From IMG/VR virus record IMGVR_UViG_3300012971_000005, positions 1-54,684 of that record: DNA of 54,684 bases. One strand, 5' to 3'. Below, piece after piece: positions 9,450 through 32,809 of the stretch. The position numbers were made by a program, and so were the translations under genes. Origin of the DNA: a virus (lineage: Duplodnaviria; Caudoviricetes). The notes under the pieces were generated by a model, which ran no database searches, was not told the origin of the DNA, and saw only the letters and a list, made by a program, of their open reading frames with translations. Within the stretch, counting starts at the first letter, position 1, and each line of letters starts with the position of its first letter.

Positions 9450-11579
9450 TTAATCCCCCCCCTCGCGATGCCGCACCTTGCCGGCGGTGATACGGTACAG
9501 GGCCTGCACGTCGCTGTCCTGGAGATACTGCGTGTAGAGGCGCACGTCATCCACCTTGCCGCTGCCGTTGACCACATGGGCGGGCTTATTCCAGCGGCCC
9601 GCCTCAAAGGGCGTGGTCTGGGTCGCCGTGGGCACGCTAAAGGTACTGGTCGAGGTCTGGAGCTGGCCATTCACCCAGATTTTGGCCTGACCGGGGGTGT
9701 TGCCATCTGCCCCCACCGCGATGTGCATCCAATTCCCGATATACGGAGCCAGATTGAAGTAGATCGAGCCGCCGCCCGTGTGCGTGCTATCATCCCACGC
9801 GCCATACTGCCAGTAGAGGTAGCCATCACTGCAGGGGGCACAGACGCCGAACAGATTGGGCGTCGGGCTCGCGGTACCCAGGCTCATGGCGCCCCCCGTC
9901 TGCACCAGGCTCCAGAACACGAGGGTCACTGGTTGGTTGGCGGGCCAGGCAAAGGGCGTCGCCGCGCTCGTTTCGACATGCTCACCGCTCCCGCTGAGCG
10001 CCAGCCCTTGGGGACCGACACGTGCCCCGACATGGCCAGGGAGTGGGGAACCCGTGAGTGTGCCCGGATGACCATTCGCGGTACTATCCGCCGCCACCGT
10101 GCCACTGGCTTCATCCAGTTTCCAGTACAGATAGAGCCCTACTGGGAGGATGTTGATGGGCTGGCCGCCCATCTCCCAGGCGCCCAGGTCAGGACTGGTC
10201 CCGGCGGGTTGGGGCCGTGTCTGCCCACTAAAATCGGTCCCTACGACCGACGTCAAATCCACCCCCTTGCCCAGGGCGGGAGAGGTATTTTGCAATTGGA
10301 ACGAGGCGGCGGTAATGCCCGCCGCCGCTAAATCACTATCTGGAATCGTGGTGCCTGGACCCGTGGCAACAAACTGTGGGTCACTATAGACGATACAGCC
10401 CCCGGCACTGCACAGGTTCGTGTCGATGGTATCCCCACTTTGTCCCGTCCCCATCGTGATCACATCCGACACGGAGCCATTGGAGAGATTATTCCAGCAG
10501 AGATTGTTGCGGATGGTATTGCCACTGCCGCCAGAGAGGAGCGCAATACACTGCTCGTTATTGCCACGGGTCCGCACGATGGTATTGTGATAAATAAAAT
10601 TATTGGACACCGCGGCGCCGCTACAGGAAATCGCCACGACGCCCCCTTTATGTTGGTCCATGGCCAGCCCGGTCCGGGCGACGATATTGTTGTAAAAAGA
10701 GTTGTTGCTCCCCCCGCAGGAGAACAGGACGGCGCCTTGTGTATCATGTAAGTAGTTATTGCGGATGGTGTTGCTGTTGAAGGCGCCATGGTCGGAGTAC
10801 ATGTGCATCGCAAAGCCCGGCACCCGCGCCACTTCGTTATTCTCGATGACGGAATAGCCGCCGGAGAGATACATGCCATAGGTTGCCGTGGCGCCGGACG
10901 TCCAATCGGCTCCGAGATCATGGATATAGTTATTGCGAATCGTCGTGTTCTGCTGGTTATAGCCCTGGCCGAGTCCCAGGGTGAACGTCGTAATATCGGC
11001 CCCCTGGCCCTTGCCGCCCGAAATATCCAGATCGAGATAGCTGATACCATTCGGGCCATCATATTGCAGCGCATGCCCCACACTCCATTCACTCCCGCCC
11101 ACGACGCCAAAGGCCTGCCCATATTGATTGCTCGGCAGCAGGAGGGTCAGGCCCTGGAAGGTCAGATAGTTGGCTGGACGCCCGGTGTCCCCCGTGTTTT
11201 GGGTCGCGGGGCGCGTCCCGGCATGAATGAGGTTGCCCCCACAGCCACTCCAGGTCGCATTATCGACACTGCTCCAGCCCACCACCGCGGCGCCTTTGGT
11301 GGCCGCCTTGATCACGGTTGGATGCGTGGCATCGAGGCCATCCGGGATACTATCCCCCGGAAGACATTCGTTATACGAGCCATTCAGGAGCACGAGCGTA
11401 TCCCCCTGACCGAGGCACCCCACCCCTTTCACGAGACCGCTCACCGGCGTGCCGCTACTGGTCGCGCCGTTGCAGGGATTGGCGCTGGGAGCATTCGGGG
11501 AGGCGTAATAGATCTGCCCTCCCCACCCGGGTGTCTGGAGCAGGACAAGCAGCCCAACTACGAGCAGGAGGCGTCGCAT
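9450..11579 (-). CDS. Signal-peptide-bearing right-handed beta-helix protein with C-terminal LamG-like domain (receptor-binding/depolymerase-like)
   Basis: MRRLLLVVGLLVLLQTPGWG; TIRNNYIHD/IENNEV/FYNNIV repeats; PDLGAWE; YWKLDEASGTVAADS...KVDDVRLY. Confidence 0.8.
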   Translation of the reverse strand: MRRLLLVVGLLVLLQTPGWGGQIYYASPNAPSANPCNGATSSGTPVSGLVKGVGCLGQGDTLVLLNGSYNECLPGDSIPDGLDATHPTVIKAATKGAAVVGWSSVDNATWSGCGGNLIHAGTRPATQNTGDTGRPANYLTFQGLTLLLPSNQYGQAFGVVGGSEWSVGHALQYDGPNGISYLDLDISGGKGQGADITTFTLGLGQGYNQQNTTIRNNYIHDLGADWTSGATATYGMYLSGGYSVIENNEVARVPGFAMHMYSDHGAFNSNTIRNNYLHDTQGAVLFSCGGSNNSFYNNIVARTGLAMDQHKGGVVAISCSGAAVSNNFIYHNTIVRTRGNNEQCIALLSGGSGNTIRNNLCWNNLSNGSVSDVITMGTGQSGDTIDTNLCSAGGCIVYSDPQFVATGPGTTIPDSDLAAAGITAASFQLQNTSPALGKGVDLTSVVGTDFSGQTRPQPAGTSPDLGAWEMGGQPINILPVGLYLYWKLDEASGTVAADSTANGHPGTLTGSPLPGHVGARVGPQGLALSGSGEHVETSAATPFAWPANQPVTLVFWSLVQTGGAMSLGTASPTPNLFGVCAPCSDGYLYWQYGAWDDSTHTGGGSIYFNLAPYIGNWMHIAVGADGNTPGQAKIWVNGQLQTSTSTFSVPTATQTTPFEAGRWNKPAHVVNGSGKVDDVRLYTQYLQDSDVQALYRITAGKVRHREGGD

Positions 11580-11601
11580 ACATGTGCCCTTTCGTGTTTC
11601 G

Positions 11602-13137
11602 TTACTGGAGGATGGCCTCGAAATTCCCAATCACTACCTTGGCCGTGCCGCCCGCCGTGGCAATATTAAAGTCCAGCGAGCAGGGCGCCGTCGGACAGTT
11701 CGCGCCGGCGCTGCCGGGCGTCACCGGTTGCAGGATCGGTTGCCCAGTCAGGGTACAGGTCGCAAAGCTCCCATTGCCGCAGGTGCACGGCCCCGTCACC
11801 ACTGACGTGGCGCTCTGGCCAGTGAGGATGGGCTGAATGGTCAGCGGCGTCGCGCCCTGCACGTCGACTTTACAGGCCAGGGCGAGGATTTTGAGCGGCC
11901 GGCGATACATATTGGTCCAGACGGTCGGCGAATCGTTGCCATCCAGGAGGGGCGGCGACGACGACTCGGGATCGCCCACGAACAGCGAGAAGGGGCGCAG
12001 CTTCAAGTAGTCTTCGGGCGTCCCGTCCCACAACTTCCATTTGGTCGCAGTGGCGTCATACCACACCGTCTTACAGAGCTTCGGCGCAATGGTCACATCA
12101 TCCGTGAGATCGAATTGATTGGCTGCCGCCGAGCCGCTATCCAGTGTCCCCAGGACGACGGGAGAGGTAGGACCCACGTTGCACATATTTTTGATCGTGC
12201 CATCCGAGAGCCCGCCGGAGGCCAACCCGGTAATGCGGCAACTGGTGACCCCACAGGTAATCCCCAGAATCGTGACCGCCCCAAAGGCGGGGGGACCCGT
12301 CGGGTTCCAGTCGTTCGTGGTCGCGCTGGAGAGGGTGACGGCGAGACGACCGGGGAAGGCGAACTGGCCGCTCGCCTTGACGACGGTCGGGTTGGGATAG
12401 GAGCTCCCGAGATCCCCTCCCGCCGCGCCGCTCGGCGGCCCCCCCGAGCCCGTGGGAATGTCGGCCAATTGGAGGTTCCGACAGGTCCAGGCCGCCGGAC
12501 CGCCCGACACCGGGCCAGCCATGACACAGTTGGCATTCACGTTGGCTTTGCTCACGGCAAACACGCCGCTGGTCGTAATCGCCGTCGTCGGTGATACGGT
12601 GAACTCATTGATGGGCATGGTCACCTGGAGGCTGGTCACGGTGCCGGAGCCGGCGCCGGGCGGAGCGGAGTACTGCGTATTCCAGAAGTCCACCATCGAG
12701 GTCTGGCCATTGGTGGTGCTGTCGTCGGTGAGCGTGCCGACGACAAAGCCCGGTGACGGCACGGTGTCGGTCTGATGGCAGCGCCCCCCGATCCCGACCA
12801 CGACCGCACTGCCGCCTTTGCCGGTCGTCGTCGAGTCAAACACGCACGGCGCCTCGCCACTCAGGACATAGACGGCGCTCAAGGCCGTGCCAGCATTGGC
12901 ATTGACGACGAACAGGGGGATGTTGGTATCGCTGGACGTGGCCACCACCAGCTTGGCGCGGCCCCCAGCGCCACCAGGCTGCTTTTTTGCCAGGAAATTC
13001 AACGCGGTCCCTGTGGTCGTGTCATTGGGCAACGAGCTAAAGGACGTATTACTTTTCTGGGCCGAGCAGACGGGTGCCAGACCCAGCATGGCCAGAAGCA
13101 GCGACAAGCATACCCATCGTGGGATAGACATACGCAT
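11602..13137 (-). CDS. Signal-peptide-bearing Cys/Thr/Gly-rich fibre-like protein
   Basis: MSIPRWVCLSLLLAMLGLAPVCSA; fibre-shaft-type motifs GSGTVTSL and GAAGGDLGSSYPNPTV. Confidence 0.7.
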   Translation of the reverse strand: MRMSIPRWVCLSLLLAMLGLAPVCSAQKSNTSFSSLPNDTTTGTALNFLAKKQPGGAGGRAKLVVATSSDTNIPLFVVNANAGTALSAVYVLSGEAPCVFDSTTTGKGGSAVVVGIGGRCHQTDTVPSPGFVVGTLTDDSTTNGQTSMVDFWNTQYSAPPGAGSGTVTSLQVTMPINEFTVSPTTAITTSGVFAVSKANVNANCVMAGPVSGGPAAWTCRNLQLADIPTGSGGPPSGAAGGDLGSSYPNPTVVKASGQFAFPGRLAVTLSSATTNDWNPTGPPAFGAVTILGITCGVTSCRITGLASGGLSDGTIKNMCNVGPTSPVVLGTLDSGSAAANQFDLTDDVTIAPKLCKTVWYDATATKWKLWDGTPEDYLKLRPFSLFVGDPESSSPPLLDGNDSPTVWTNMYRRPLKILALACKVDVQGATPLTIQPILTGQSATSVVTGPCTCGNGSFATCTLTGQPILQPVTPGSAGANCPTAPCSLDFNIATAGGTAKVVIGNFEAILQ

Positions 13138-13140
13138 CTC

Positions 13141-14031
13141 CTAATGGAAGAAAGGAAAGAATTGCCCATGGGCTGACAGCGCCACGGGCGCTGCCCCCAG
13201 CGCCGGCACGGGCGGGAGCAGGTCGGGGACCCCGCGTATCTCTTGCGCGTAGAGGCCTGCCACATCGGCGTCGGTGAGCAAGCGGCCAAACACCATGTAG
13301 CTATCGCCGCTGCCAATCTGGATATTGCCCCCATCGCTGCGGGCGCCCAGACTCCAGGCTTGATTGGGCATGGTCCCGAGCGTGTCATTTTGGATCGGCG
13401 TCAACGCGGCCGGCACGCCATTCAACCAGATATGCATATCCGCCAGATTTTGTGTGCCGCCGTACGTGACGCAGAGGTGATACCACGTCTGCAAGGCCAG
13501 CGTGGCACTGGTGCGCGTCGTGATCGCCAGATTGGCGCTATCGCGCACGTCAAATTCAAGCACCTGACTGGTAATCATGTGCACGGTCACCCCCTTATCG
13601 ACGCTGCCCCCATCCGTGATCACGGTATCCCAGCCGGATTGGCCCGTCGCAAACAGCGTCCACAGGCACAGGCCCACGGGCAGGGTGCCGGTGGTATACC
13701 CCGAATTCACGGGGGTGACGACATAGTCATCGCTGCCATCAAAATTGATCTGGGCATAGCCCCCCAGGTGCGTGCTCGGCCCCCAGCCACTGGTGCTGCT
13801 ATAGCCCATGTTCGTGAGCGTGCCATGATCCAGCGTGCCGGGTACCAGGTCATAGAGCCGTGTGCCGCCGACACTCAAGGGCACCGCACGCCACCAGTGT
13901 TGGAGGCCCCGCAGCAGGGGATGACTCATGTTCGGCTGGAGCGGTGCCCACCCGCCCCCCGGCCATTGCGGCAACGCCGGGAGCGGCAGGAGCAGCCAGA
14001 AGAGCAGGGTGAGGATGAGATAGCGTTGCAT
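13141..14031 (-). CDS. Signal-peptide-bearing LamG/concanavalin A-like protein
   Basis: MQRYLILTLLFWLLLPLPALP; INFDGSDDYV, WYHLCVTY, IWLNG, RLLTDADVAGLY. Confidence 0.8.
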   Translation of the reverse strand: MQRYLILTLLFWLLLPLPALPQWPGGGWAPLQPNMSHPLLRGLQHWWRAVPLSVGGTRLYDLVPGTLDHGTLTNMGYSSTSGWGPSTHLGGYAQINFDGSDDYVVTPVNSGYTTGTLPVGLCLWTLFATGQSGWDTVITDGGSVDKGVTVHMITSQVLEFDVRDSANLAITTRTSATLALQTWYHLCVTYGGTQNLADMHIWLNGVPAALTPIQNDTLGTMPNQAWSLGARSDGGNIQIGSGDSYMVFGRLLTDADVAGLYAQEIRGVPDLLPPVPALGAAPVALSAHGQFFPFFH

Positions 14032-14633: not shown

Positions 14634-16763
14634 TTAATTCGTGCTCGCTATGAGCTGAAGGCTGCTGGTGTCAGCACTGTAAAGTAAGCCAATGATTACT
14701 TCGTGGGCCGTATCAAGCGGGCACGTCGTTGGCCCCGTGACCGCTGCGCTGTTGACGATATTGGCCGCATAGGCGATGGTCTGCGCCGCCACCGTGCAGC
14801 GCAGCCGCAGCAGGAAGCGATCACCGTCCACCAGCGTGCCCGAGGTGCCCAGCGTCACGGTGCCAGCGGCACCCGACATACTCATCTTGCACTGATTCAT
14901 CGAGCCATTACGCGCACAGTTATAGGTCGTACTGGAGGCGATGGTCTGCACGCCGGTGTCGACGAGATAGGCATTGGTGTCGACCCCCAGCGTCCCTGTC
15001 CCTCCACTCGTTTTCACAAAACCGTTGGTCGTCAGGTTGGCCAGGGCCGCAATCGTCGGCGTCGTGAGAGCAGGACTGGTAGCCTTCACATAGTTACCCG
15101 TTCCCGTTACGGCGATCCCCTGGATGACCGTTGCACTGGCCCACTCTGCCGCCTGTCCTGCGCTCGGCGTTCCCGTATTGGAGACATTGCCTCCCCCCAC
15201 CGTGGCCCAGGTGCCATCGCCGCGCCAAAAGGTGGTAGAAGAGGCGCCCGTCCCCCCGGCCAGATTGGCCGGGGGCAAATTCCCCGTGACGCCGGTAGAC
15301 AGCGGCAACCCCGTTGCATTGGTCAGCACCGCCGCGCTCGGTGTCCCCAGATTCGGCGTCGTGAGGGTGGGACTGGCGCTTTTGACGTAGCTGCCCGTGC
15401 CGGTCACCGTCACGCCTTGAATCGTCGTCACGGTCACCCATTCCGCCGCCTGCCCGGCACTGGGGGTGCCGCTACTCGACACATTGCCCCCCCCTGCGGT
15501 AAAACAACTCCCGCCCTTGACGCATAACTCCCCAGGCTCTGCCGGCAGAAAGTGCGCCCAGTTGTTGGGCATACTCGTGGGGGGAAGGAGATAGCCCTTG
15601 TGCCCCAGCCGGTCCTGCCACGACAGGTAGTTCCCCAGAGAGGCCGCCTGGAGGTTCGTGGCGATGAGTGTATGGCCGGTGGGATTGATGAGCACATTGC
15701 CACTATCCGCGGCCAGCACGCCGCCCTGGTTGTATTGCACATCCCCCGTGACCCCGGCCGGGGTCACGCCCGCGCCCCCGCCCCCGCCCCCACCGGTCCC
15801 CGTACCGCAGGCCGCGCCCGTATCGACCAGATTGAGGTTGCTATCGAGCTGCACACAGTGGCCCGGAGTGAACGGCCCGAGGCCGGTCATGAGCGCATGC
15901 GACGTGCCCACCAGGGTGGTGTCTGGGGGCAGGAGCACCGGCGACGTGGTTTGTGAGTTGTACGTCAGGACCGCCTGTCCTATCCGGGAGGAATACTCGA
16001 AGATCCAGACATCTTCGGTCGTCCCCCCGGTCGTCGCGGTGGGCAGTGCGATCCCGGTATGGGCCGTCCAGAAGCTCCCCCAACTCACGGCACGGGCCAC
16101 GGTGGAATGCGCCCGAAAACGCAGGATCTGACTCGGGCGCACGCTGCCATTCGGATTGTCAATGAGCGTGGCTTGCGCCAAGTCGCTGAGCACGAACACA
16201 TCACAGGTATCGACATTCACCACGAGCGGCGTCGTGGTGGTGGGCTGTGAACACTGGCGCGGGGTGACGCGCGTCTGGGTCACCTCCTGCACATCCGTGG
16301 TCCCGAGGAGCTGTCCCACCGGGGCTGGGCGAGTCGAGACGGCCGCGACCGCGCCTGTCACCGTCGAGACGACCAGACCCGTGGGCAAGGCCCCCAGATT
16401 GACCCCCGACGGGAACAGCGGCGAGGGCTGTGCCAGCAGCAGCGCCGGCCCGACGATGGGCGTCGACAGCACGGGTGGTCGGCACAGCGTTGCCCCCGTA
16501 CTCGATTGCCCATACGCGAGGTCCGTGCTCTGCGTACACTGCGAGCCGATAAACCCGGCAAAGCCCCCGACCCCGTTGGCGGCTTGCAATGTCCCGGCCG
16601 GTCCAATCGCGCCGCCTGCCCCTGTCCCGCCACCGCCCGTGGCCGTGGCCGTCGTGACCACGCCACGGGTACCGGTAGGCGGCACACTCCCGTACACGAC
16701 GGCGGCGTGCGTCTGTGCCGCCATGAGCAGGCAGCAGAGGAGGAGCAGCAGGAAGCGCACCAT
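14634..16763 (-). CDS. Signal-peptide-bearing long tail-fibre-like protein with internal repeat
   Basis: [20 protein letters not shown]; two copies of [17 protein letters not shown]...TGTG.YVK..SP.LTTP; GDVQYN and [10 protein letters not shown] shaft-type motifs. Confidence 0.75.
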
Positions 16764-17233
16764 CAGGGAATTCCCTCAATCGTGACCACCGTGGTATCAG
16801 CGGCCGTACTTCTGATACACCACCACGCTTCTCGACCCTCAGTCCCCAGGAGCACTTGCTCGCCAGCGTTGAGCAGGAGCCCGACAGTCGCCGTCGGCGT
16901 CCCCTGCGGCTTTGACAGGCACCGCATGGGTGCTAGGCCTTTGTTCCACAGCAGTCGAGTACAAGCAGCCGCATTGACGGTCATCACATCTACAGGGGTT
17001 GCACTCACGGGGATGTCACTGCCAGCGCCAACGGTAGAAATCAGGGTCTTGGTCGGAGTACACACTTGAACCGTCTGGGCACTCGCCACCATGGGCACAC
17101 TGCCACCCCCACGACTGATCCCCCGGAAGTACGGCAGGATCCACCAGGACAGCAGCAGCGGCAGGACCACGAACAGGACAAGGACGGCAACGCCCAGGCG
17201 GGCACTGACAGGGTGGAGACGGTGATTGCTCAT
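16763..17233 (-). CDS. Membrane-anchored or secreted small beta protein, paralogue of 44144-44530
   Basis: Hydrophobic N-terminal segment; RC...TPTATVG...AWWCIR...DTTV.TIE.IP. Confidence 0.7.
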
Positions 17234-17315
17234 GATTGTGCTTGCATTCCTCTATTAACGATAATATAATTATTGACGATATTACTCACTCACATGACCT
17301 GAGAGGAGGTCGCAT

Positions 17316-17711
17316 ATGCATGTAGCCTGGTTTCTGCTGATCTGCATCCTCTGCCTCGTCTTCATGGACGGGCGACAGATACGAAAACTCGTGACCGTCG
17401 TGGCCTGCTTGGCCTTTGTAGCGGCCCTGGTCTTGTACGCCGGCCTCCACTTTCTGCCCACGCAGCCGAGTCCAGTGGCCTCCTGGGAAATGCCGCCTCC
17501 CACGCAGGGGCATGATTATTCTCAGGAACTCTATGGCGCGCCGCCTGCACAACAACCAGCGACGCCAGCGTTTGATCCCGAGGCTGTGCTCAATGAGCTC
17601 TATGGACCAGCGCCAGATAGGCAAAAAGTCCAAAAAGACATCTTTGATACCAAGCCAGAGCCCTCTCCCATAGCACAGCACACCCAGCACAGCCAGCACC
17701 GTCGCCGCTAA
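17316..17711 (+). CDS. Membrane protein, putative superinfection exclusion (SieA position)
   Basis: AGGAGG RBS; two hydrophobic segments; opposite strand, directly after the last ejection gene; AT-rich upstream region. Confidence 0.6.
   Translation: MHVAWFLLICILCLVFMDGRQIRKLVTVVACLAFVAALVLYAGLHFLPTQPSPVASWEMPPPTQGHDYSQELYGAPPAQQPATPAFDPEAVLNELYGPAPDRQKVQKDIFDTKPEPSPIAQHTQHSQHRRR
17567..17611. repeat. 45-nt inverted repeat with 19866-19910 (40/45 identical)
   Basis: AGCGTTTGATCCCGAGGCTGTG is identical, followed by 4 mismatches and ATGAGCTCT(A/T)TGGACCAGC. Confidence 0.9.
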
Positions 17712-20356
17712 CGCGCTGAGGCCGGCAGTTCCCACGGCGCTACCGGGCTGGGCTGTGTCGTCAGCGGGCGGTAGGCGGCCGCCTCTGGAAACTCCTGGCG
17801 AAATTCCGCCGCCGCCCCGCCCAAGGCACCGTAGAGACCGGGGGACATCGGCCCCCCGGCCTGCATCCACTGAAGCAACTGGGGCCTCCAGGTCGGTGAC
17901 ACGAGCATGCGCGCCAGGGCATAACTCCCGGCCTCATGCGCTAACCCCAACCCCATAGCGATGCCTCCCGCATGCGGATGCCCGGCCGCCGCCGCCCCTA
18001 CGGCCCCTAGGTACGGCAACAGGCGCAGCCCCGTACGCAGCAACCCCTGTTGCCCGCCCTCCGCGTACTGTTGCATAGCCGGCGTCGGCATGGTCACGGG
18101 TTCCATACGTCTGGGAACTTTGGCATACTCGGCGATGTCGGCCTGAAGCCGGGCATACTCGTCAGGGGGCAGCCATTTTTCCAGGTTCTTCGACTTCGCC
18201 ACCACATTGGCCAGCGCATCGGGATTGAACTCCCACTCACCACCTCTTTGCCGGATAATCGGACCACCCCGGCGCAGCATGTCCCCAAGCGCGCGCGCAC
18301 TTTCCCGTTGTTTCCAGGCTGACAAGGCCGCATCCAGCAAGGGCTTTTCGCCCGGCAACGACTGCGCCAGCGTGTCATGCAGCACGCCATACAGTTCCTT
18401 GGCCGCTTCACGGGTTCTCGCATCGCCACTGCGCGTCAGTTTGCCCACATCTTTCATGACATTGTTATACACGTCGCCCGCCTGGGGCTGTGGTCCCAAC
18501 GCATTGAAGCGCTGCACGAGCTGATCAAGTTGCGGCATATCCCGCAACCTGCTGCCCCACTGCGCCACGGTCTCCTGCACGGGCGTGGGCGAGACGGGTT
18601 TGCCGCCAGCAATATCGCTAAAGCGGTTGTAGAGCCGCTCCACCACATTCGCGCCTGGATCATCCCCAATAAAACGCCCCACGCCTTGTACCGGCGGCGC
18701 CCCGGTCGGATAGACCGGGCGCTCACGATAGATGCTTTCCACAAAGCCCTGGCGCAAAGCGTCGGTCGTGGGCTCCGAAATATACCCCGCTTTATGAGCA
18801 GCATCCGCCAATTCTGGCAACGTTTTGCCAGTCTGGTCATTGATCAACCGGGTAAAGACGCCCTGTTTCCCGACCTCTTTGGGCGCCATGACCTGATACC
18901 ACGGCGCATCAAGGGATTCCCCCGTCAAGCGCACACCGCCCTGTTGTTCAATGAATTGCTGGAGTTCGGGTGCCGTTCCAGGTGCCGGACCCGGCGGCCG
19001 CACGGGCTTCGACGCCCCCGGCCACTGCTGCCCGCCCTGCAAATACGTTGCGCCCTCATCCATCAACCTGGACGAGGCTTCGGCTTCCGTCGTGACTCCC
19101 AGCCGCTCCATGACCTGCTGTGCCGGACTGCCCCCTTGCTGGAGCATATCCAGGTCACGACGTACATCAAAGACGTTACGCGGAGGCATCGTCGGCTGAT
19201 ACGTGCCCGGAAGCGCCTCAGCACGGGCCAGAGCTTGCTCGTTGGCGATATTGGCGGCGCCCCGTGCTGCCGCCTCCCGTTCAGCCGCTAGGAGCAGACG
19301 GCCGGCCTTGGTCAGGGAGAGCACCCCGGCCCGCCCTAAACGAAAAGCATCCGGGACCACCGGGGCAAGCCCCGCGACAACATCGCCCAGGTCCTTCGGC
19401 AGCAGGGTAGGCTCACCAGGCATGAGGCCAAGCGCTTTATTGAGTTGATGGGCGCCGTACGAGCCCAGACCCGCCAGTACTGGTGAGGCTACAGGCGCAA
19501 AGGGGCCGGTAGCCATCCCGGCGGCAGCTCCGCCTACGGTTGCCGCAGTTTCCAGGCCGGTGGCCAGCAGGTGTCGTCCACTCATCGCCGTTGGCGCTAA
19601 AAACTCCTCAACAGCCCTGTTGATCTCTGCACTCCCCGGTCGGCCCGGCGGTCCCGCTGGAGCTGGCTGCGCTCCCGGCATCGAGTACTGGAGCCCAATC
19701 ATCGGGGCTGCTTCATACTTCCCTGGTGGGGTCCCTGGCGCGGCAGGCACCTCAGACGGCTGGGCTGGCGGAGGCGTGGGCGTGGGCACCGGAGGTGGCG
19801 CTGGCGCTGTTGGAGGCATGCCTGGTTGGGCTGGTTGGGCTGGTTGGGCTGGTTGGGCTGGTTGGGCTGGTCCAAAGAGCTCATCATACACAGCCTCGGG
19901 ATCAAACGCTTTCGCGACTTGTGCTCCTCCTCCCAGGCTGGCCGCCTGCATGCGGTAACGCCCCAGCACGTTCCCGGCAAAGTTGGGATCACTCCCCCCG
20001 TTATAGCGTTGCAGGGCTTGCGGCACATTGCCTTTGGTCTGCGCCAGTAAATCCTTAAAATAGGCAATGCCGGCCGGTGTACTCAGCGTGGGATCAGCCC
20101 GCGAGACATCATCTGGAGGTTGCCCATAATCCTGCCCCGTGGGCTTTGTCACCTGAAACAAGCCCACCACGCCTGTCGGGCTCTTCGCCGTTGGCACAAA
20201 CCGGGATTCCTGATGGGCCAGAGACAGCATCAGCGCCGGATCCATGCCCTGTTTGCGCGATTCATCGATAATCAGTTGGCGTACCTTCCCCGTGGTCCAG
20301 CCTGGGGCGTCAGGGTTAAACAGATCGTCAAAGACGGCATTCGCATCGAAGGGCAT
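17708..20356 (-). CDS. DNA ejection protein (gp16-like position) with N-terminal lytic transglycosylase (SLT) domain
   Basis: LAHQESRF, GVVGLFQV, AGIAYF, ALQRYNGG; PAQ repeats at 19822-19866; hydrophobic Gly/Ala segments. Confidence 0.8.
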   Translation of the reverse strand: MPFDANAVFDDLFNPDAPGWTTGKVRQLIIDESRKQGMDPALMLSLAHQESRFVPTAKSPTGVVGLFQVTKPTGQDYGQPPDDVSRADPTLSTPAGIAYFKDLLAQTKGNVPQALQRYNGGSDPNFAGNVLGRYRMQAASLGGGAQVAKAFDPEAVYDELFGPAQPAQPAQPAQPAQPGMPPTAPAPPPVPTPTPPPAQPSEVPAAPGTPPGKYEAAPMIGLQYSMPGAQPAPAGPPGRPGSAEINRAVEEFLAPTAMSGRHLLATGLETAATVGGAAAGMATGPFAPVASPVLAGLGSYGAHQLNKALGLMPGEPTLLPKDLGDVVAGLAPVVPDAFRLGRAGVLSLTKAGRLLLAAEREAAARGAANIANEQALARAEALPGTYQPTMPPRNVFDVRRDLDMLQQGGSPAQQVMERLGVTTEAEASSRLMDEGATYLQGGQQWPGASKPVRPPGPAPGTAPELQQFIEQQGGVRLTGESLDAPWYQVMAPKEVGKQGVFTRLINDQTGKTLPELADAAHKAGYISEPTTDALRQGFVESIYRERPVYPTGAPPVQGVGRFIGDDPGANVVERLYNRFSDIAGGKPVSPTPVQETVAQWGSRLRDMPQLDQLVQRFNALGPQPQAGDVYNNVMKDVGKLTRSGDARTREAAKELYGVLHDTLAQSLPGEKPLLDAALSAWKQRESARALGDMLRRGGPIIRQRGGEWEFNPDALANVVAKSKNLEKWLPPDEYARLQADIAEYAKVPRRMEPVTMPTPAMQQYAEGGQQGLLRTGLRLLPYLGAVGAAAAGHPHAGGIAMGLGLAHEAGSYALARMLVSPTWRPQLLQWMQAGGPMSPGLYGALGGAAAEFRQEFPEAAAYRPLTTQPSPVAPWELPASAR

Positions 20357-20357
20357 G

Positions 20358-22253
20358 TTATTGGATTCCTCTGATGTCGTACCCGCCATTGAACAAGTAT
20401 TGTTTGAGTTGCTCGCGCGTCAACGGTGGTTGTCCAAGCTGCGCCCGACGTGTCTGCGTCACATTCCACAAGTCATTAAAATTGCTCTGGCTCATGGGGC
20501 CTTTGGACGGTGCCGGCCGCTGGTAAGCCCCCGCCTCTACTGGTGTCCGCACGTCAGGCGCGACGGCTTCCCCCCGGACCAGGGGATTGTTCCGATATTG
20601 GTCCAAAAATGCCCCACGCCGCTTCTCATAGGTTTCTTCCGCCGCCTTATAGAGTTCCGCACTCTGCGACGCCAGTTGCCGCCGTTGCTCGTCCCCCAGA
20701 GTCCCACCACGCGAGAGCGTTTCCCAAAATTTGCCAAAGCGCTGCTCAAGAGAGCCAATTTGCTCGACGGTCGGTTCCCCCGTGAGGCGTGTACTGAGCG
20801 GATTGCTCAAATGCACAAAGGCCCGCACCAGGCTCTTATCCGCCGCGTTCCGATTGGTGGCTGCCACCGGACCAACGGACGCCTGCACTTGCCGCATGGC
20901 GTCCACCATGGTCGGAAACGGGCCAATATCTTTGACATACTGCTCATGCGCCGCCCTCTCTTCCTCATTGCGGAATTTGATGGCCGCAATATCCCGGATG
21001 GGTTCACCGCCCGGCCCTAGCAACGGTTGTGCCGTGCTGGGGACAGTCGGAGCCCCGGCTCCGCCGCCAGAGGGAGGCACATTGGCCCCAGGATACACAG
21101 GCTCCCGTTGACGGTATCCGTATATATCCGTCCCATAGCCCGTTTTGCGTAACTCTTCCCGCCGCACCAGCGCCTCTTCCGCCGGCGGCGTCAACCCGCC
21201 CCCCACGCTCCCCGGCGCATAGGGCGACGGCGCGCCCGGCGGCAGATACTTATACGTAAACTGAGGCCCGGCCGTGGTGTCGGTCCTGACCAGTTCCCCG
21301 GCCTCACGGCGTTCCTTGAAGCGCTCCGTCCAATTCTTAAACTCGTCATTGGCCCGGCCCCAGGCGGCGATCTGTTGCTCCCCCCGCGTCTTGGCGTCCA
21401 GGGCTTGCGCCGCCAGCGCCCCGACCATCTGCGGGTTGTACTGGTCCGGCCACTGCTGCGCTCCTGGAATACCCCGTGCGACCGCCACGGCACGGGCTTG
21501 CTGCCACGCTGCCGGACGTTCGGCTTCCGGGCGCGACATGACGGAATCCGCGATCTGCGCCATCGCATTGTTGGACGCAATCGCAAAGTCTAACTGGCCC
21601 CTTTGCTGCTCCATCAGATGTTTATCCATGGTCATGAAGCGGTCGATAATCGGCCCGACCACCTCCGGATGCCCCTGCATATACATGCGGTCATAGAGCT
21701 GCCGCTGGCGCTGCACGTCAGCCATGATGTCACGCTGCGGTGCCGGTTGAGCCTGGGCTTGCGGCTGCGGTGTCGGTTGTCCCTGGGGCTGTGGTGGAGC
21801 TTGCGGCTGTGGTGCTGTCTGTGGTGGCGTTGTTGCACGTGGAACACTGGGAGGGGCGGGAGACAGCCCAAGGTCTGCCTGGTAGGGATTGAGCTGTTCA
21901 GGAGCTAAACTGGGCTGTGGCCCCGGCTGTGCGCCCGGCACCTGCACCCCGGCCACTGGTTGCTGCGCAGCAGGGGTGGCCGGCATCACGGTACCGCCTG
22001 ACGCCCCCATGGGAGCATTAGACGGTCCCTGCCCACTGCGATAGGCAAGGAGCTGCTGAAAGGCGCCCTGGGGATCTTGCAGATTACGGTAAGTCTGCAT
22101 TTTAAGCCCCAGGTCCTGTAACTGGAGATTGCGCAACGCCGCCTGACTTTGGAGGTTCTGCAATTGTGCCACAGTAAGCAGGACCTGGCTGGGATCAGAC
22201 CCCTGGAATTGAGGAGGGCGGACCTGCAAGCTTATGTCTGGTTGGAGTGGGAT
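20358..22253 (-). CDS. DNA ejection protein (gp20-like position); start possibly a non-canonical ATC
   Basis: Gln/Pro/Ala-rich and helical; lies between the other two ejection genes; AGGAGG 6 nt before an in-frame ATC at 22253. Confidence 0.7.
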   Translation of the reverse strand: MPLQPDISLQVRPPQFQGSDPSQVLLTVAQLQNLQSQAALRNLQLQDLGLKMQTYRNLQDPQGAFQQLLAYRSGQGPSNAPMGASGGTVMPATPAAQQPVAGVQVPGAQPGPQPSLAPEQLNPYQADLGLSPAPPSVPRATTPPQTAPQPQAPPQPQGQPTPQPQAQAQPAPQRDIMADVQRQRQLYDRMYMQGHPEVVGPIIDRFMTMDKHLMEQQRGQLDFAIASNNAMAQIADSVMSRPEAERPAAWQQARAVAVARGIPGAQQWPDQYNPQMVGALAAQALDAKTRGEQQIAAWGRANDEFKNWTERFKERREAGELVRTDTTAGPQFTYKYLPPGAPSPYAPGSVGGGLTPPAEEALVRREELRKTGYGTDIYGYRQREPVYPGANVPPSGGGAGAPTVPSTAQPLLGPGGEPIRDIAAIKFRNEEERAAHEQYVKDIGPFPTMVDAMRQVQASVGPVAATNRNAADKSLVRAFVHLSNPLSTRLTGEPTVEQIGSLEQRFGKFWETLSRGGTLGDEQRRQLASQSAELYKAAEETYEKRRGAFLDQYRNNPLVRGEAVAPDVRTPVEAGAYQRPAPSKGPMSQSNFNDLWNVTQTRRAQLGQPPLTREQLKQYLFNGGYDIRGIQ

Positions 22254-22272: not shown

Positions 22273-23082
22273 CTACTTCTCCACCCGCGGCATGAGCGTC
22301 AGCGCCGCTTGCCCACTCTGGCGCATCAGCCAGTCTGGCAACCGTTCGTGGATGATTCCCACATGGTACGAATGTTCTGAGTCATACCGCTTGCCGCCTA
22401 CTCCCTGGTTGCGCACCGGGTACCCATTTTGCAAACAGTAAGAAGTCAGATACCGGCCAAACCGCGCCCACATCGGCTCAGGAAAGACCGACCTCAGGTC
22501 GGGATGCAAATACACATACTCGTGGATGGTCAACCACTGTTGCTGCGCTAGGGCCAGCGTGGATTTGGCTTCGGCCTGGGCAGCCCTGGCTTCGGCCTGC
22601 ACGGCCTGCTGCTGCGCCGCTGCTGCCAGCAAACGGGTATCTTCAATGGCATCAGCCAACTGATGGATCGCTTGCAAATCAGGAAACTGCCCACGCCCCC
22701 GCAACGGCAACCGTGGATTCTGTGCCAATCCCGCCATCCAATAGTCCCGCAAGGCCCCTGCACACTCTTCTTGATAGGCCAGTAATTTGTCCCGCACCCC
22801 CTCCTGCACTTTTTCCGCAGAAATGCCAGCTAACCAGGCAGGCAGATAATCAATATCGAGCAACACCGTTTTACGCACTCCCCCCTCCGTTTCGATATCG
22901 AAACGGAGCGTATGCCGTTGATATAACAAGGAATGCAAGATTTTTTGTGACTGACTTCCCCAGGAAAGACCCAGGCGTACACAGATTTCACGCGGCAGAC
23001 AATACACCTTCCCCGTGTGTTCATGACGGCAGGTACTAATCTCGTCACCGTGAAAGTCTATCCGTTGCATCGTCATCATCAT
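22273..23082 (-). CDS. ant: Antirepressor with P22 Ant N-terminal domain
   Basis: IDFHGDEI, VYCLPREICVRLGLSWGSQSQKI, LPAWLAGISAEKV, KLLAYQEECAGALRDYW. Confidence 0.8.
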   Translation of the reverse strand: MMMTMQRIDFHGDEISTCRHEHTGKVYCLPREICVRLGLSWGSQSQKILHSLLYQRHTLRFDIETEGGVRKTVLLDIDYLPAWLAGISAEKVQEGVRDKLLAYQEECAGALRDYWMAGLAQNPRLPLRGRGQFPDLQAIHQLADAIEDTRLLAAAAQQQAVQAEARAAQAEAKSTLALAQQQWLTIHEYVYLHPDLRSVFPEPMWARFGRYLTSYCLQNGYPVRNQGVGGKRYDSEHSYHVGIIHERLPDWLMRQSGQAALTLMPRVEK

Positions 23083-23528
23083 GACTTCTCCCCTGCCGCT
23101 TGCCGCGCGGCCTCATCACGATGCTGTCGTGCACGGGCTGTTCTCTCTAGCATATCCAAGAGTGCGCACAAGTCAGGATACTTATCAGCGACGTTGGGAC
23201 TCCGTCCCTCACAAGAATGACCAAAGAGGGCAGGGAAAACATGCTGCCACGCCCAAGCCCGAAACCGAACCGCCTCTGGCGTCGTAGACACAAACGCCAG
23301 ACCATAAAGCCCCGCATCATTTATCATCGCAAAGCACGGGCACCCCCGCACCTCTACAGCCGTCCATACGCCTCGTTCGTCATCGGCAAGTTGAGCCAAA
23401 GCCGCCGGCACGTCGCCAAGTCCGAGCACAGTACAGACATCGGCGGCCAACAACCACAAAATGCCATCTGATGTGACTTGCCCTCGGATTGCCTGTTCAT
23501 TAAACTCAAATGCTATCAGGTCGCTCAT
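23079..23528 (-). CDS. Bro-N domain protein
   Basis: FEFNEQAIR, WLLAADVCTVLGL, LADDER, INDAGLYGL, PEAVRFRAW. Confidence 0.85.
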   Translation of the reverse strand: MSDLIAFEFNEQAIRGQVTSDGILWLLAADVCTVLGLGDVPAALAQLADDERGVWTAVEVRGCPCFAMINDAGLYGLAFVSTTPEAVRFRAWAWQHVFPALFGHSCEGRSPNVADKYPDLCALLDMLERTARARQHRDEAARQAAGEKS

Positions 23529-27898: not shown

Positions 27899-28657
27899 AT
27901 GCCTCAAGTCTCATCTGTCTGCCAATATCTTCCCTGTAGCACACCGTTTCTCGTGACTGCCTATAAACGCCGCATTGGTGTTGGCTTATATTGTTCAGAC
28001 TACTGCCGTAGTGCTGCACGTCGAGTACCACTGCTGCCTATCCCGTGTGGCTATTGTGGCAGCATCTTTCTGGTTCGTATCACTCTTTTCAAAAACGGTG
28101 AAGGAAAATATTGTTCGAAAGCCTGTCGTGTCAAAGGATTGACGCTGCCATTGCCAGAACGTTTTTGGAACAAAGTTATACGATGTTCTCATGAACAAGA
28201 CTGCATATACTGTTGTTGGACCTGGACTGCTGGCCATGACAAAGCTGGATATCCTACAATCTCGATTACCCATAGCAAACCAGGCCGCGCTTCCCGCGTA
28301 GGCTGGGAACTCTGGCACAACCGACCTCTTCCTGCTCATAAACTTGCCGCCCATTACTGTAACAATCCTCGCTGTATCAATCCCCAGCATATCTATCCAG
28401 CCACAACCCAAGAAAATGCCGCTGATGCTATACGGGCTGGCACACTTGCCCATGGAAGTACACACCACCATAGCACCCTTACTGAAGAAGATATCCTTCG
28501 CATTTTCACTCTTACTGCTCAAGGAGTTTCCCGATATACCATTACTCAGCAAATGCCTGTAAGATATGAAACTGTCTGCCGTATATTACGCCGTGAAGCT
28601 TGGCGCCATGTCCCCATCCCTGACGCCCTCCTCACTGCGATCACCAGGAGGCACTAA
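27899..28657 (+). CDS. Free-standing HNH homing endonuclease (zinc-ribbon repeats, HNH, HTH)
   Basis: YCSDYCR/YCSKACR, ERFWNKV, CWTWT, AHYCNNPRCINPQHI, TTQENAAD; lower GC; AGGAGG RBS; upstream TGCTATACT. Confidence 0.9.
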   Translation: MPQVSSVCQYLPCSTPFLVTAYKRRIGVGLYCSDYCRSAARRVPLLPIPCGYCGSIFLVRITLFKNGEGKYCSKACRVKGLTLPLPERFWNKVIRCSHEQDCIYCCWTWTAGHDKAGYPTISITHSKPGRASRVGWELWHNRPLPAHKLAAHYCNNPRCINPQHIYPATTQENAADAIRAGTLAHGSTHHHSTLTEEDILRIFTLTAQGVSRYTITQQMPVRYETVCRILRREAWRHVPIPDALLTAITRRH

Positions 28658-31873: not shown

Positions 31874-32809
31874 TCAATCCTTCTGTTTATCTACATACTG
31901 TGCACGTCCAGTCTTGAGACGATAGCTTACTTGCATAAGACTCAAGCCTGTCGCGCGCACTGCATCCATCATCGAGGGATATTCCACGCCACCAAGCATG
32001 ATCGCTCTAGCCTTCCAGTTCTTTCCTCCTGTCCGTGATGCCGACATCTTGGCTTTGGTATCTTCGCGGTGCGGAATGCCTTTGTTCCAGGCTTTCTGCC
32101 CTTTATGGAGCGCCGATAACTTCTGACGGTGTGCCTCAGATAACGGGCCAAGTTTTTTCCCAAGCGTAGGGCTAGGACGTCCCTGCGCTTTCGCTGCCAT
32201 CTTCGCCCGTGCCTCTGCAGAATGTTTCCGCCCCTGCATCGGATTAGCATGCGTCGCGTAATAATCCTTCAGTCCTGCCGACACTTGAGCCTTTGTCGCC
32301 TCATCCCGTGGTTTGCCCCGCCTAGCAGCGGCAATCTTTTCCCTGGCCTCCTCGGTATGATGCTGTCCACGCCAGGCATCTGACGCCTCGGCCAGTTTCT
32401 GCCGCCTTGCTGCGGACACTGGCACACCTTTGCCACGATGATGCCCCGAATTCACTTCTAACAGCTTGGCTTTGTGCTCAGCACTCATGCCTTTTCCGTA
32501 CAGGCCATTCGCCTCTGCAAGTTGCCCTTCCCCGCCAGACGTCATGTTATAGCCAAGTGGCCCAAACGTCTGATACTGCGCAATGGCAACTCGTTCCATC
32601 GCACATAACGCTTCCCAAGAATCCGCCTGCCCAAGAATCGTCACGACAAATGCCTCTTTCCCGTACTTGCGTATCGCCCGCGCAAAGGCGGTTTCTAACC
32701 CATGCCGCGCTTGGGCCACATGATCACGCCAGCGGGCTGCCACGGATTTCGTGGTAATCCCGATGTAGCGCTTCTCCGTTACCGTATTAATCACGAGATA
32801 CAGATACAT
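31874..32809 (-). CDS. Free-standing GIY-YIG homing endonuclease with NUMOD3 repeats
   Basis: YLYLVINTVTEKRYIGIT, RWRDH, GYNMTSGGEG; repeats HTEEAREKI, HSAEARAKM, HREDTKAKMS. Confidence 0.9.
   Translation of the reverse strand: MYLYLVINTVTEKRYIGITTKSVAARWRDHVAQARHGLETAFARAIRKYGKEAFVVTILGQADSWEALCAMERVAIAQYQTFGPLGYNMTSGGEGQLAEANGLYGKGMSAEHKAKLLEVNSGHHRGKGVPVSAARRQKLAEASDAWRGQHHTEEAREKIAAARRGKPRDEATKAQVSAGLKDYYATHANPMQGRKHSAEARAKMAAKAQGRPSPTLGKKLGPLSEAHRQKLSALHKGQKAWNKGIPHREDTKAKMSASRTGGKNWKARAIMLGGVEYPSMMDAVRATGLSLMQVSYRLKTGRAQYVDKQKD

Follow-up and report, generated by a model that had tools for sequence, protein, structure and literature searches.

Can a phage turn peptides of its own DNA ejection machinery against its relatives? 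The question is raised by a locus of a soil phage, studied here in a window of 54,684 nt (the whole stretch of DNA that was analysed), at which a small gene on the plus strand converges on the gene of a large ejection protein. A preliminary description of this locus proposed that the small product, a membrane protein lying where phage P22 carries sieA, bears a motif copied from the ejection protein and could exclude related phages by mimicry, and that recombination between the two DNA copies could invert the sequence between them. In this study, we show that the tail of the small protein carries peptides of the ejection protein, namely a copy of its C-terminal tail and two or three copies of a short motif, and we weigh what they may be for.

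Results

The ejection protein and its module

The large gene belongs to a P22-like structural module, in which the portal protein matches PF16510, a gp10-like head-closure protein is encoded and ejection proteins lie upstream. Its features are as follows (window coordinates).

17708 to 20389, minus strand: gene of the 893-aa ejection (internal virion) protein (PF01464, phrog_342)
20312 to 20353, minus strand: N-terminal motif, PFDANAVFDDLFNP, predicted helix 16-24
19991 to 20275, minus strand: SLT lytic transglycosylase domain (PF01464, E 5.3e-19, 68.4 bits, cut-off 21.3)
19866 to 19910, minus strand: post-SLT motif, AFDPEAVYDELFGPA, right arm of an inverted repeat, predicted helix 164-172 (pLDDT about 65-70)
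19813 to 19871, minus strand: PAQ repeats of the linker, encoded by five 9-nt units in tandem (repeat search)
17723 to 17764, minus strand: C-terminal tail segment, residues 876-889, LTTQPSPVAPWELP, copied in the small protein (alignment)

With its SLT domain, the catalytic Glu-Ser pair (E61 and S62, kept in alignments) and its place downstream of portal, coat and head-closure genes, the protein is a member of the SLT-domain ejection proteins. It corresponds to phrog_342, internal virion protein with endolysin domain, with phrog_598 among the neighbours, and has 3965 relatives at E <= 0.001. The order of its parts is N-terminal motif, SLT domain, second motif, proline-rich linker, a large C-terminal part bearing hydrophobic stretches and a C-terminal tail that ends in Arg. 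Both motifs, one of them near the N-terminus, had been read from the convergent ORF in the preliminary description, and both are present. Among the families searched, SLT is the sole peptidoglycan hydrolase family found in the genome; Phage_lysozyme and Amidase_2 were searched for and not found, and no dedicated endolysin, holin or lysis cassette was recognised.

The small gene

17242 to 17270, plus strand: candidate sigma-70-type promoter, TTGCAT, 17 nt, TATAAT (read by eye)
17305 to 17309, plus strand: Shine-Dalgarno sequence GGAGG, 6 nt upstream of the ATG at 17316
17316 to 17711, plus strand: small accessory gene, 131 aa, ATG start (ORF list)
17454 to 17495, plus strand: tail copy, residues 47-60, LPTQPSPVASWEMP, directly after the second hydrophobic segment
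17514 to 17546, plus strand: motif copy 1, DYSQELYGAPP, in the tail of the small protein (sequence; regular expression)
17567 to 17611, plus strand: motif copy 2, AFDPEAVLNELYGPA, left arm of the inverted repeat (repeat search, codon comparison)
17622 to 17663, plus strand: possible motif copy 3, QKVQKDIFDTKPEP (read by eye; missed by the regular expression)

The ORF of 131 aa represents a genuine accessory gene, with a promoter-like and a ribosome site of its own. It tops the six frames on codon log-likelihood with 0.168 per codon (0.071 for the neighbouring 156-aa gene), and its stop codon overlaps that of the ejection gene by 4 nt. The candidate promoter sits in the 82-nt gap separating divergent genes and was left unflagged by a consensus scan because its first hexamer fits in only 3 of 6 positions.

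By hydropathy (peak 2.53) the product is a membrane protein, as described before, having two hydrophobic segments at about residues 3-17 and 25-46, connected by a basic loop, DGRQIRK, of net charge +2. An acidic, proline-rich tail of 85 residues, probably disordered, follows the second segment and closes with HRRR. By the positive-inside rule, the charge bias alone would place this tail in the periplasm. Searches of 5.8 billion proteins, phage records and viral contigs returned no homologue of the small protein, and Pfam, PHROGs, PADLOC and NCBIfam gave no family match. It is an orphan, found in one genome type only.

The gene occupies a variable slot of the P22-like structural module, flanked by the final ejection-protein gene on one side and the tail genes on the other. 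This is indeed the position of sieA, as had been claimed: in P22 (NC_002371), sieA (13336-13830, minus strand) lies opposite to and after gene 16 (11484-13313, plus strand), converges on it and has its own annotated promoter, and the small gene matches that slot, convergent and with a promoter-like site. Membership of the SieA family, types A to C, was rejected. The alignment to P22 SieA was equalled by 139 of 500 shuffles, and the conserved motif FxRYPxEAxxFNK, which PMC10883804 places on the cytoplasmic side of SieA, is absent from the 131-aa translation. Within P22, no peptide sharing or similarity was detected between SieA and gp16, gp20 or gp7.

Peptides shared by the two proteins

Best local alignment of the small with the large protein scores 76, a value reached by none of 1000 shuffles (37.6 +/- 5.6). 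As controls, alignments of the small protein with the tail fibre and with the proteins of 623, 650 and 156 aa gave nothing remarkable (the score was reached by 83 to 220 of 500 shuffles); for the portal protein the count was 7 of 500. Searched with a permissive regular expression for the core of the motif, the full set of six-frame ORFs of the genome gave six matches, with 1.4 +/- 1.2 expected, and four of the six lie inside the small and the ejection gene.

The peptides that the preliminary description had assigned to the small ORF, motif copy 2 and DYSQELYGAP, are encoded there, and the inverted repeat that it had noted (17567-17611 and 19866-19910) was recovered by the repeat search as 45 nt with 89% complementarity (40/45). 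The arms are 2254 nt apart and their longest perfect run is about 22 nt. All five mismatches change a residue; they fall in three codons (L/Y, N/D and Y/F). Eleven of the 12 conserved residues have the identical codon, and the twelfth, the final Ala, differs in its third base just beyond the arm. In the small gene, one instance of the motif is copied at the level of DNA from the ejection gene of the same phage.

A second shared segment, missed in the preliminary description, joins residues 47-60 of the small protein to residues 876-889 of the ejection protein. Here 11 of 14 residues agree, the score is reached by 0 of 1000 shuffles and six conserved residues are written with different synonymous codons. 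Motif copy 1 aligns with the C-terminal motif of a second membrane-protein family (hhalign; see below). The possible third copy is similar to the N-terminal 'DLFDT' variants of relatives.

The motif in the ejection-protein family

At the level of sequence, a short motif, roughly [DE]-[LI]-[FY]-G and predicted to form a helix, flanks the SLT domain family-wide. Relatives of the ejection protein carry it at the N-terminus, in most of them at the extreme N-terminus, and just past the SLT domain, frequently in tandem. Its core matches 48 times in 150 relatives as compared to 14.5 +/- 3.7 in shuffles. On these sequence grounds we count the motif as functional in the ejection-protein family.

Close relatives and the exchange unit

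17319 to 19694, no strand assigned: exchange cassette comprising the small ORF and about residues 233 to 893 of the ejection protein (blastn, contigs)

In blastn against the close relative L112, homology ends at 19695 and returns at 17318, and the cassette sequence in between is unrelated. A contig of run X1 joins 17312 to 19695, and an L112-type loose end at 17312 is found in run X5. Exchange affects, as one unit, the small gene and, in the ejection protein, the C-terminal two thirds.

The intergenic promoter stretch is identical in this phage and L112 at 74 of 85 positions, including the candidate promoter hexamers with their spacing and the Shine-Dalgarno sequence, whereas the ORFs behind it are unrelated. 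L112 has a different, motif-free 82-aa membrane ORF with two segments and the same 4-nt stop overlap; since this ORF has no motif, L112 is without the inverted repeat. The slot holds no gene in L007 and other genes in the more distant L118 and L119.

At five synonymous sites, the codons of the motif copy in the small gene agree with its own large gene and differ from L112. Where residues have changed, this copy shows the L..Y form, as in L112 and L113; the large gene reads Y..F in the post-SLT motif and F..F in the N-terminal one. Compared with L112, residues 1-26 of the ejection gene differ by 8 nonsynonymous and 4 synonymous codons, against 6 nonsynonymous and 31 synonymous in residues 27-154 (Fisher p 0.0019). 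The changed residues and the nonsynonymous pattern appear compatible with an arms race.

A second lineage

A second lineage of soil phages (L116/L117 and L114/L115) encodes a 228-aa SLT protein with four motif copies, and its gene is met by a convergent gene for a 172-aa membrane protein whose C-terminal end reads TLGEVLYGP, the motif in the form peculiar to this lineage. The last roughly 35 residues of this protein are similar to the last roughly 37 of the SLT protein, and the motif codons of the two genes differ at synonymous sites. Between two contigs, the 172-aa ORF differs 7, 7 and 18 times at the three codon positions, a third-position bias. The motif is kept in all nine of the 11 aligned rows that reach the C-terminus. 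According to hhalign, the 172-aa family and the 131-aa protein have no homology outside the motif. In L114/L115 codon 120 of the second-family gene is TAG, so that there, at least, the protein can do without the end that carries the motif. The two lineages make a small sample of motif-bearing convergent membrane proteins.

Discussion

What could a membrane protein do with peptides of an ejection protein? We favour, with a confidence somewhat short of even, a SieA-like exclusion decoy directed against related phages. The tethered tail would compete with the ejection proteins of an incoming relative for the docking partner of the shared peptides, possibly a factor of the host envelope or a further protein of the conduit, and through this competition the building of the DNA conduit would come to a halt at the inner membrane. 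In outcome this would equal P22 SieA; in means it would differ, with peptides of the target itself serving as the decoy. The ejection motifs may since have changed (Leu to Phe or Tyr, Tyr to Phe) while the decoy kept the form of the relatives, and so the decoy may hit relatives harder than self. Relatives carrying the motif form of the small protein occur in the same soils.

Of the proposals in the preliminary description, the sieA position, the membrane protein and the DNA-level motif copy have stood; recombination as a switch has no support, and neither has membership of the SieA family. The mimicry idea gains from the copied C-terminal tail, from the family-wide motif at the SLT flanks, from the unrelated membrane-protein family of the second lineage and from the joint exchange of the small gene with most of the ejection protein, although these findings do not in themselves demonstrate a function. 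We count against the decoy that the L112 slot protein is motif-free, that the L007 slot is empty, that L118 and L119 have different genes there, that SieA is neither similar to the small protein nor a mimic of the P22 ejection proteins, and that L114/L115 carry the TAG. The usual setting of SieA action is expression from a prophage. In the present genome no integrase match was obtained and no repressor was recognised, so that expression of the small gene from a prophage is at most a possibility. Three antirepressor-like genes are the sole hint of a temperate lifestyle.

A wider form of the decoy reading, which we regard as doubtful, holds that some soil podoviruses build exclusion decoys of at least two origins by putting their own ejection peptides on membrane anchors, with discrimination between self and rival. 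The SLT-flanking motif and the C-terminal tail would be grafted onto unrelated anchors and shown in the periplasm.

Alternatively, the small protein may serve the phage's own cycle, its shared peptides docking to a common partner in assembly or lysis; it could be a membrane tether or timer of the SLT protein, a holin- or antiholin-like regulator, or an additional membrane-inserting virion protein with the same incorporation signal. We judge this rather unlikely. The extreme N-terminal place of the motif in most relatives is like that of an incorporation or targeting signal, the small size, the two hydrophobic segments and the HRRR end are also holin features, and a genome with SLT as its sole muralytic family among those searched, in which no dedicated endolysin or holin was recognised, would suit a lysis role. 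Expression during lytic growth is plausible as well, given that no integrase was found. Against this, the small gene runs counter to the direction of the entire structural operon and has a promoter-like site to itself, no endolysin gene is adjacent, and its being replaceable or absent in close relatives fits an accessory rather than an essential function. The C-termini of two-segment holins are cytoplasmic, whereas the charge bias of the small protein would put its tail outside the cytoplasm.

In another version of exclusion, the tethered motifs would block the incoming SLT domain itself in trans, having normally packed against it in cis. The motifs do stand on both SLT flanks as predicted short helices, and there is a precedent in the periplasmic T4 protein Spackle, which according to PMC7677548 (Commun Biol 2020) inhibits the lysozyme domain of the tail protein gp5. 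We nevertheless hold this to be improbable. Up to four motif copies follow one another in tandem on long linkers rich in proline, an arrangement that suits avid binding of an external, multimeric partner better than occupation of one groove; moreover, the second copied segment, that of the C-terminal tail, is unconnected with the SLT domain.

Equally improbable to us is that the small ORF is a non-functional by-product, an idle frame left when inverted partial duplications, or gene conversion by the ejection gene, reached the spacer. An orphan in one genome type, one shared segment that is a recent DNA copy, and high-GC DNA with its many long spurious ORFs speak for such an origin. The ORF, however, starts with ATG behind a strong ribosome site and scores best on codon use; its promoter region is conserved, with a membrane ORF at the same start in L112; its second shared segment is kept at the level of the protein and not of the DNA; and coding constraint acts on the second family, which parallels it.

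A DNA switch based on the inversion noted in the preliminary description, by which the inverted 2.3 kb would yield a membrane-anchored ejection C-domain and a short SLT protein, is hardly credible: the arms do share one codon phase, so that an exchange between them would be in frame and swap the C-termini, and a short SLT protein of that type is natural in L116/L117, but the complete genome has no match to Resolvase, Phage_integrase or RVT_1 and thus no resolvase/invertase, tyrosine recombinase or reverse transcriptase, the arms are just 40/45 identical with a perfect run of about 22 nt, and contigs of 4 soil runs covering 16500-20600, which drop rare forms, contain no strand-changing joint. 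A diversity-generating retroelement was rejected likewise, as there is no reverse transcriptase and the 5 mismatches are not adenine-specific.

If the decoy reading is true, the target of an exclusion protein and the peptides involved can be read directly from sequence, exclusion genes can be found via similarity to the adjoining ejection protein, and short candidate interaction peptides are named for a large, poorly understood class of ejection proteins. New for this class, even should the small protein have a different function, are the conserved short motif around the SLT domain and its recurrence on two unrelated convergent membrane proteins.

Comparison with known systems

Two-segment holins have two transmembrane segments and a charged C-terminus and come with an endolysin alongside in a lysis cassette. 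The size and the two hydrophobic segments of the small protein would fit this class; no endolysin lies beside its gene. In filamentous phages, a resident phage's periplasmic copy of a segment of the entry protein g3p blocks later phages by occupying the entry factor TolA, the same idea as that of the decoy. There, folded domains of the entry protein meet a known host partner, whereas here short peptides are carried on a separate membrane protein.

The closest solved relative of the ejection protein is T7 gp16 (E 2.5e-07; PDB 7eyb, 6yt5, 7k5c). Likeness to the T7 gp16-type proteins is confined to the SLT domain, and the 893-aa protein is likewise encoded among ejection-protein genes; the remainder of the protein differs, as do the motif repeated at the SLT flanks and the P22-like surroundings of the gene.

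T4 Spackle, as PMC7677548 describes it, is an envelope protein that halts superinfection by way of a virion-borne hydrolase, and the motifs copied here flank such a domain. Spackle complexes with the lysozyme domain, whereas the present protein would offer peptides of its target on a probably disordered tail that is tethered to the membrane. HXS is a repeat-bearing envelope effector that arrests podovirus DNA entry (Nat Commun 2026, PMC13128918). It is described there as belonging to the host, as involving radical-SAM maturation and as a proposed binder of DNA, and has no relation in sequence or gene content to the small gene.

P22 SieA and the small gene have in common the opposite strand, the place just past the last ejection gene and a promoter of their own, a candidate one in the small gene. 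Both products are membrane proteins, the small one by hydropathy, and the analogy is limited to position and membrane location. SieA is mostly membrane-embedded, as compared to two hydrophobic segments and a long, probably disordered tail in the small protein. The P22 study (Leavitt et al., mBio 2024, PMC10883804) names as an open question by what means proteins of the SieA type recognise ejection proteins of great diversity, and also reports that mutations escaping P22 SieA lie in the C-terminal regions of gp16 and gp20. SieA, so described, acts on the C-terminal regions of these two proteins, and it is the C-terminal tail of the protein in the position of gp16 that the small protein copies, its gene being exchanged along with that protein's C-terminal domain.

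Genome and structural module

The virus record is complete (54,684 bp, with direct terminal repeats) and its sequence originates from soil metagenomes. The minus strand of the window carries a P22-like morphogenesis module encoding a P22-type portal (PF16510, E 1.4e-130), a terminase with inteins, scaffold, major head and gp10-like head-closure proteins, and a run of ejection proteins of 650, 623 and 893 aa, after which tail-fibre-like genes come. The 650-aa protein matches phrog_598 'DNA ejection', and no family matched the 623-aa protein. The 893-aa protein (large protein) matches phrog_342 'internal virion protein with endolysin domain' and has an N-terminal SLT transglycosylase domain (PF01464, E 5.3e-19), whose nearest solved relative is T7 gp16. 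The following additional genes were recorded:

44564-47935 (-), 1123-aa ORF at the terminase position with intein-splicing and LAGLIDADG matches
31874-32809 (-), GIY-YIG homing-endonuclease gene
27899-28657 (+), HNH homing-endonuclease gene
35520-36461, 23079-23528 and 22273-23082 (-), three antirepressor-like genes (Ant, Bro-N, P22_AR_N) in the virion cluster
37533-38174 (-), 213-aa ORF matching the alpha-subunit C-terminal domain of RNA polymerase (PF03118, E 3.9e-10)

The domain matches of the 1123-aa ORF suggest at least one intein within the large terminase. Both homing-endonuclease genes lie in the structural module, the GIY-YIG gene behind the major head gene and the HNH gene, on the opposite strand, ahead of the gp10-like gene. 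Two of the three antirepressor-like genes stand between ejection-protein genes, in a genome without integrase; at the matching place, L112, a contig from a close relative, has an Ant gene of different composition.

A small gene convergent with the ejection-protein gene

The features of the region under study are as follows:

16763-17233 (-), flanking gene
17242-17270, promoter-like sequence (TTGCAT, 17 nt, TATAAT)
17316-17711 (+), ORF encoding the 131-aa small membrane protein
17708-20389 (-), gene of the large protein
17567-17611 and 19866-19910, arms of the inverted repeat
19813-19871, PAQ linker of the large protein, five 9-nt tandem units

The stop codons of the small ORF and the large-protein gene overlap, and a ribosome site (GGAGG) is located 6 nt upstream of the small-gene ATG. 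Among the six frames, that of the small gene has the highest codon log-likelihood (0.168 per codon), compared to about 0 for the antisense open frame and 0.071 for the neighbouring 156-aa gene. The promoter-like sequence upstream was read by eye; a consensus scan missed it because the first hexamer has 3/6 matches only. Position and orientation match P22 sieA, in agreement with the preliminary description, and so does the presence of a promoter of its own, here a putative one.

The small protein has two hydrophobic segments (about residues 3-17 and 25-46), connected by the loop DGRQIRK (net +2), and a tail of 85 residues with 16 prolines and a net charge of -3, which would be periplasmic according to the positive-inside rule. 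Like the ejection proteins, it ends in arginines. No relative was found in 5.8 billion proteins, phage records and viral contigs, and a single-protein scan of the viral contigs gave no match either. No family matched the small protein, the protein atlas gave no match above 0.79, and there was no structural match above TM 0.38.

Peptides common to the small and large proteins

That the small protein carries a motif of the large protein had been noticed from the sequence; this observation is confirmed and extended here. The arms of the inverted repeat are complementary at 40/45 positions and encode the same 15-residue motif in equal codon phase in both genes, and the weaker copies are present as described: the small protein has DYSQELYGAP, and the large protein begins its N-terminal region with a copy reading PFDANAVFDDLFNP. 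All five mismatches between the arms alter residues, and 11 of the 12 conserved residues have identical codons. Codons this similar indicate recent shared DNA ancestry rather than convergent resemblance.

A second segment is shared as well. In the small protein, the second hydrophobic segment is followed directly by LPTQPSPVASWEMP, the counterpart of LTTQPSPVAPWELP, with which, plus four residues, the large protein terminates. None of 1000 composition-preserving shuffles of this part reached the observed score. Six conserved residues of this segment have different synonymous codons, and it is therefore either older or preserved by selection acting on the peptide. As shuffle controls, the tail fibre, 623-aa, 650-aa and 156-aa proteins were unremarkable (83 to 220 of 500 shuffles reached the score), and the portal was marginal (7/500). 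The portal segment concerned (41730-41816, -; residues 449-477) ends in QQDLYNT and aligns with residues 75-112 of the small protein, in its tail; it is among 6 regular-expression matches in the genome and is marginal after multiple tests. Two motif copies are clear in the small-protein tail, and QKDIFDT, which resembles N-terminal variants of the relatives, is a possible third. Taken at the sequence level, the small-gene product most likely presents peptides of the ejection protein, held by a membrane anchor.

The motif in the ejection-protein family

HMMER with the 893-aa protein as query retrieved 3965 relatives at E <= 0.001. Alignments show a short acidic-hydrophobic motif at the extreme N-terminus of the best relatives, ending in [LI]-[FY]-G or [LI]-[FY]-[DN]-T, which recurs right behind the SLT domain, often in two to four tandem copies on proline-rich linkers. 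A count in 150 relatives gave 48 occurrences of its core [DEQ][LIV][FY]G, as compared to 14.5 +/- 3.7 in shuffles. The last residue of the best-aligned ejection relatives is recurrently arginine; a final arginine was seen, small offsets apart, in 11/11 aligned ejection proteins. AlphaFold modelled the motifs in the first 215 residues of the large protein as short helices at 16-24 and 164-172, with pLDDT of about 62-77 beside a confident SLT core and with motif-domain contact not readable from the output. A complex prediction for the SLT core (28-156, alignment A5) and the small tail (46-131) scored 0.01, which, being without controls, counts neither way. In the linker region 19492-19928, soil-run contigs skip 154 or 186 nt (joints 19492->19647 and 19741->19928); these may be length variants or relatives.

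Exchange of the cassette in relatives

L112 was obtained from a metagenome scan. It has the same gene order as the window and is 83% identical to the large protein over the first 176 residues. DNA homology spans the SLT domain (20441-19928, 86%), breaks off at 19695 and restarts exactly at the start codon of the small gene (17318), from where it continues through the promoter region and the tail genes. Between these breakpoints L112 is unrelated and encodes another C-terminal two thirds of the ejection protein and another convergent ORF, of 82 aa, with two hydrophobic segments and without the motif. This ORF has the ribosome site and the 4-nt stop overlap found in the window, and the 85 nt upstream of the slot ORF, that is the ORF between the large-protein gene and the tail genes, are identical at 74/85 positions. 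Soil contigs contain the alternative junction, as a joint 17312->19695 in one sequencing run (X1) and as an L112-type loose end at 17312 in another (X5), so that both cassette types co-occur in the soil runs. The more distant relative L007 has a homologue of the 156-aa gene directly behind the ejection gene and no slot gene. The still more distant L118 and L119 have other convergent genes at the slot, and no motif was found in them. Most likely the small gene is a genuine accessory gene that can be exchanged.

A degenerate DNA pattern matched 5 viral contigs. The same pattern gave 98 matching stretches in genome contigs, with three weak matches only, and therefore no prophage or host was identified.

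In the slot protein of L112 (L112:5591-5839, -), loop residues 28-57 weakly resemble residues 280-309 of its own ejection protein (L112:2871-5594, +), which lie inside the swapped cassette. This score was reached by 4/1000 shuffles, as against 190/1000 in a control with the window large protein; the likeness may reflect another case of copying, or may have arisen by chance. Two contigs of a further soil run (X2) match from 17536 onward, and the sequence ahead of this point is unrelated (a loose end). They may stem from a small-gene variant whose N-terminal part is different, or from the ejection-gene motif region of a relative.

A second family of convergent membrane proteins

The SLT domain of the relatives L116/L117 and L114/L115 is 57% identical to that of the window, in an SLT protein of just 225-228 aa that consists of the domain and four motif copies. 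A convergent 172-aa ORF meets this gene stop to stop; its product combines a basic stretch with a single strong hydrophobic segment (KD 1.96) and a long tail, whose last roughly 35 residues, ending in TLGEVLYGP, resemble the last roughly 37 of the SLT protein (4/500 shuffles reach the score). The motifs of the two proteins use different codons at 4/7 identical residues, and the likeness is therefore kept at the protein level and not as a DNA hairpin. For the motif repeats in L116, a hairpin or a terminator was considered and rejected, since the two copies differ at synonymous sites.

The 172-aa ORFs of L116 and L117 differ by 32 nucleotides (7, 7 and 18 at the three codon positions), with 15 synonymous and 15 nonsynonymous codon differences, which is evidence that the ORF is probably under coding constraint. 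This divergence begins within the ORF, at a mosaic boundary. Ten homologues of the second family were found. Among 11 aligned rows the motif is kept in all 9 that reach the C-terminus, one of them at only 50% identity, the remaining two being truncated. An in-frame TAG stands at codon 120 in L114:3566-4105 (-) and L115:8692-9231 (-), where L116 has CAG; the frame beyond it is still conserved in L114/L115. A truncated 119-aa form (P0158) is recorded from 6 contigs.

Comparison of the second family with the small protein by hhalign aligned the motif region only, with a probability of 3%. We treat the two as putatively independent scaffolds, each with the motif flavour of its own lineage. Searching viral and genome contigs with the second-family alignment (A4) gave no locus, and the AlphaFold model from it was poor (pLDDT 62.8, pTM 0.32).

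Direction of motif change

The recent copy in the small protein has five synonymous codon choices in common with its own large gene that are absent from L112; the motif was therefore copied within the window lineage. At the differing residues the small copy reads V-L-N-E-L-Y and the window large gene V-Y-D-E-L-F, with V-L-E-E-L-Y in L112 and I-L-N-D-L-Y in L113, another relative. In the N-terminal copy of the large gene, the two positions that are L and Y in L112 and L113 are both F. These residue forms in the relatives place the changes, including a three-base codon change, most likely in the ejection gene, and the changes in its two motifs were most likely parallel. When the window is compared with L112, the codons of residues 1-26 differ nonsynonymously in 8 cases and synonymously in 4; for residues 27-154 the counts are 6 and 31 (Fisher p 0.0019). 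In this small sample the pattern fits an arms race or a changed partner.

Proposed inversion between the repeats

The preliminary description also considered that recombination between the repeat arms could invert the intervening DNA. No inversion joint was present in the parts covered by the soil-run contigs, an absence that is weak because the runs are kept as contigs only, and the idea has no support. Readings as a DGR or an invertase system were rejected, as no integrase, resolvase or reverse transcriptase was found in the complete genome.

Function and known systems

Concerning function, SieA-like exclusion is the best-supported reading and is advanced tentatively: the membrane-anchored ejection-protein peptides would compete with those of an incoming phage. 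The main rival is that the small protein acts in the phage's own assembly or lysis. Searches of the superinfection-exclusion literature on ejection proteins, the inner membrane and mimicry yielded no account of an exclusion protein that copies ejection-protein peptides, and in excerpts of the SieA paper the sole 'mimic' concerns a phenotype (PMC10883804).

According to the same excerpts, SieA escape mutations map to C-terminal regions of gp16 and gp20, and how recognition by SieA survives the diversity of ejection proteins is not understood (PMC10883804). The small protein is not a homologue of P22 SieA and is without the SieA motif reported there. P22 SieA showed no local similarity to gp7, gp16 or gp20 (its scores were equalled or exceeded in 214 to 351 of 500 shuffles); peptide sharing is therefore special to the window phage and not a general property of SieA. 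For an exclusion route via the hydrolase, the nearest precedent is T4 Spackle, which according to an excerpt inhibits the tail lysozyme (PMC7677548).
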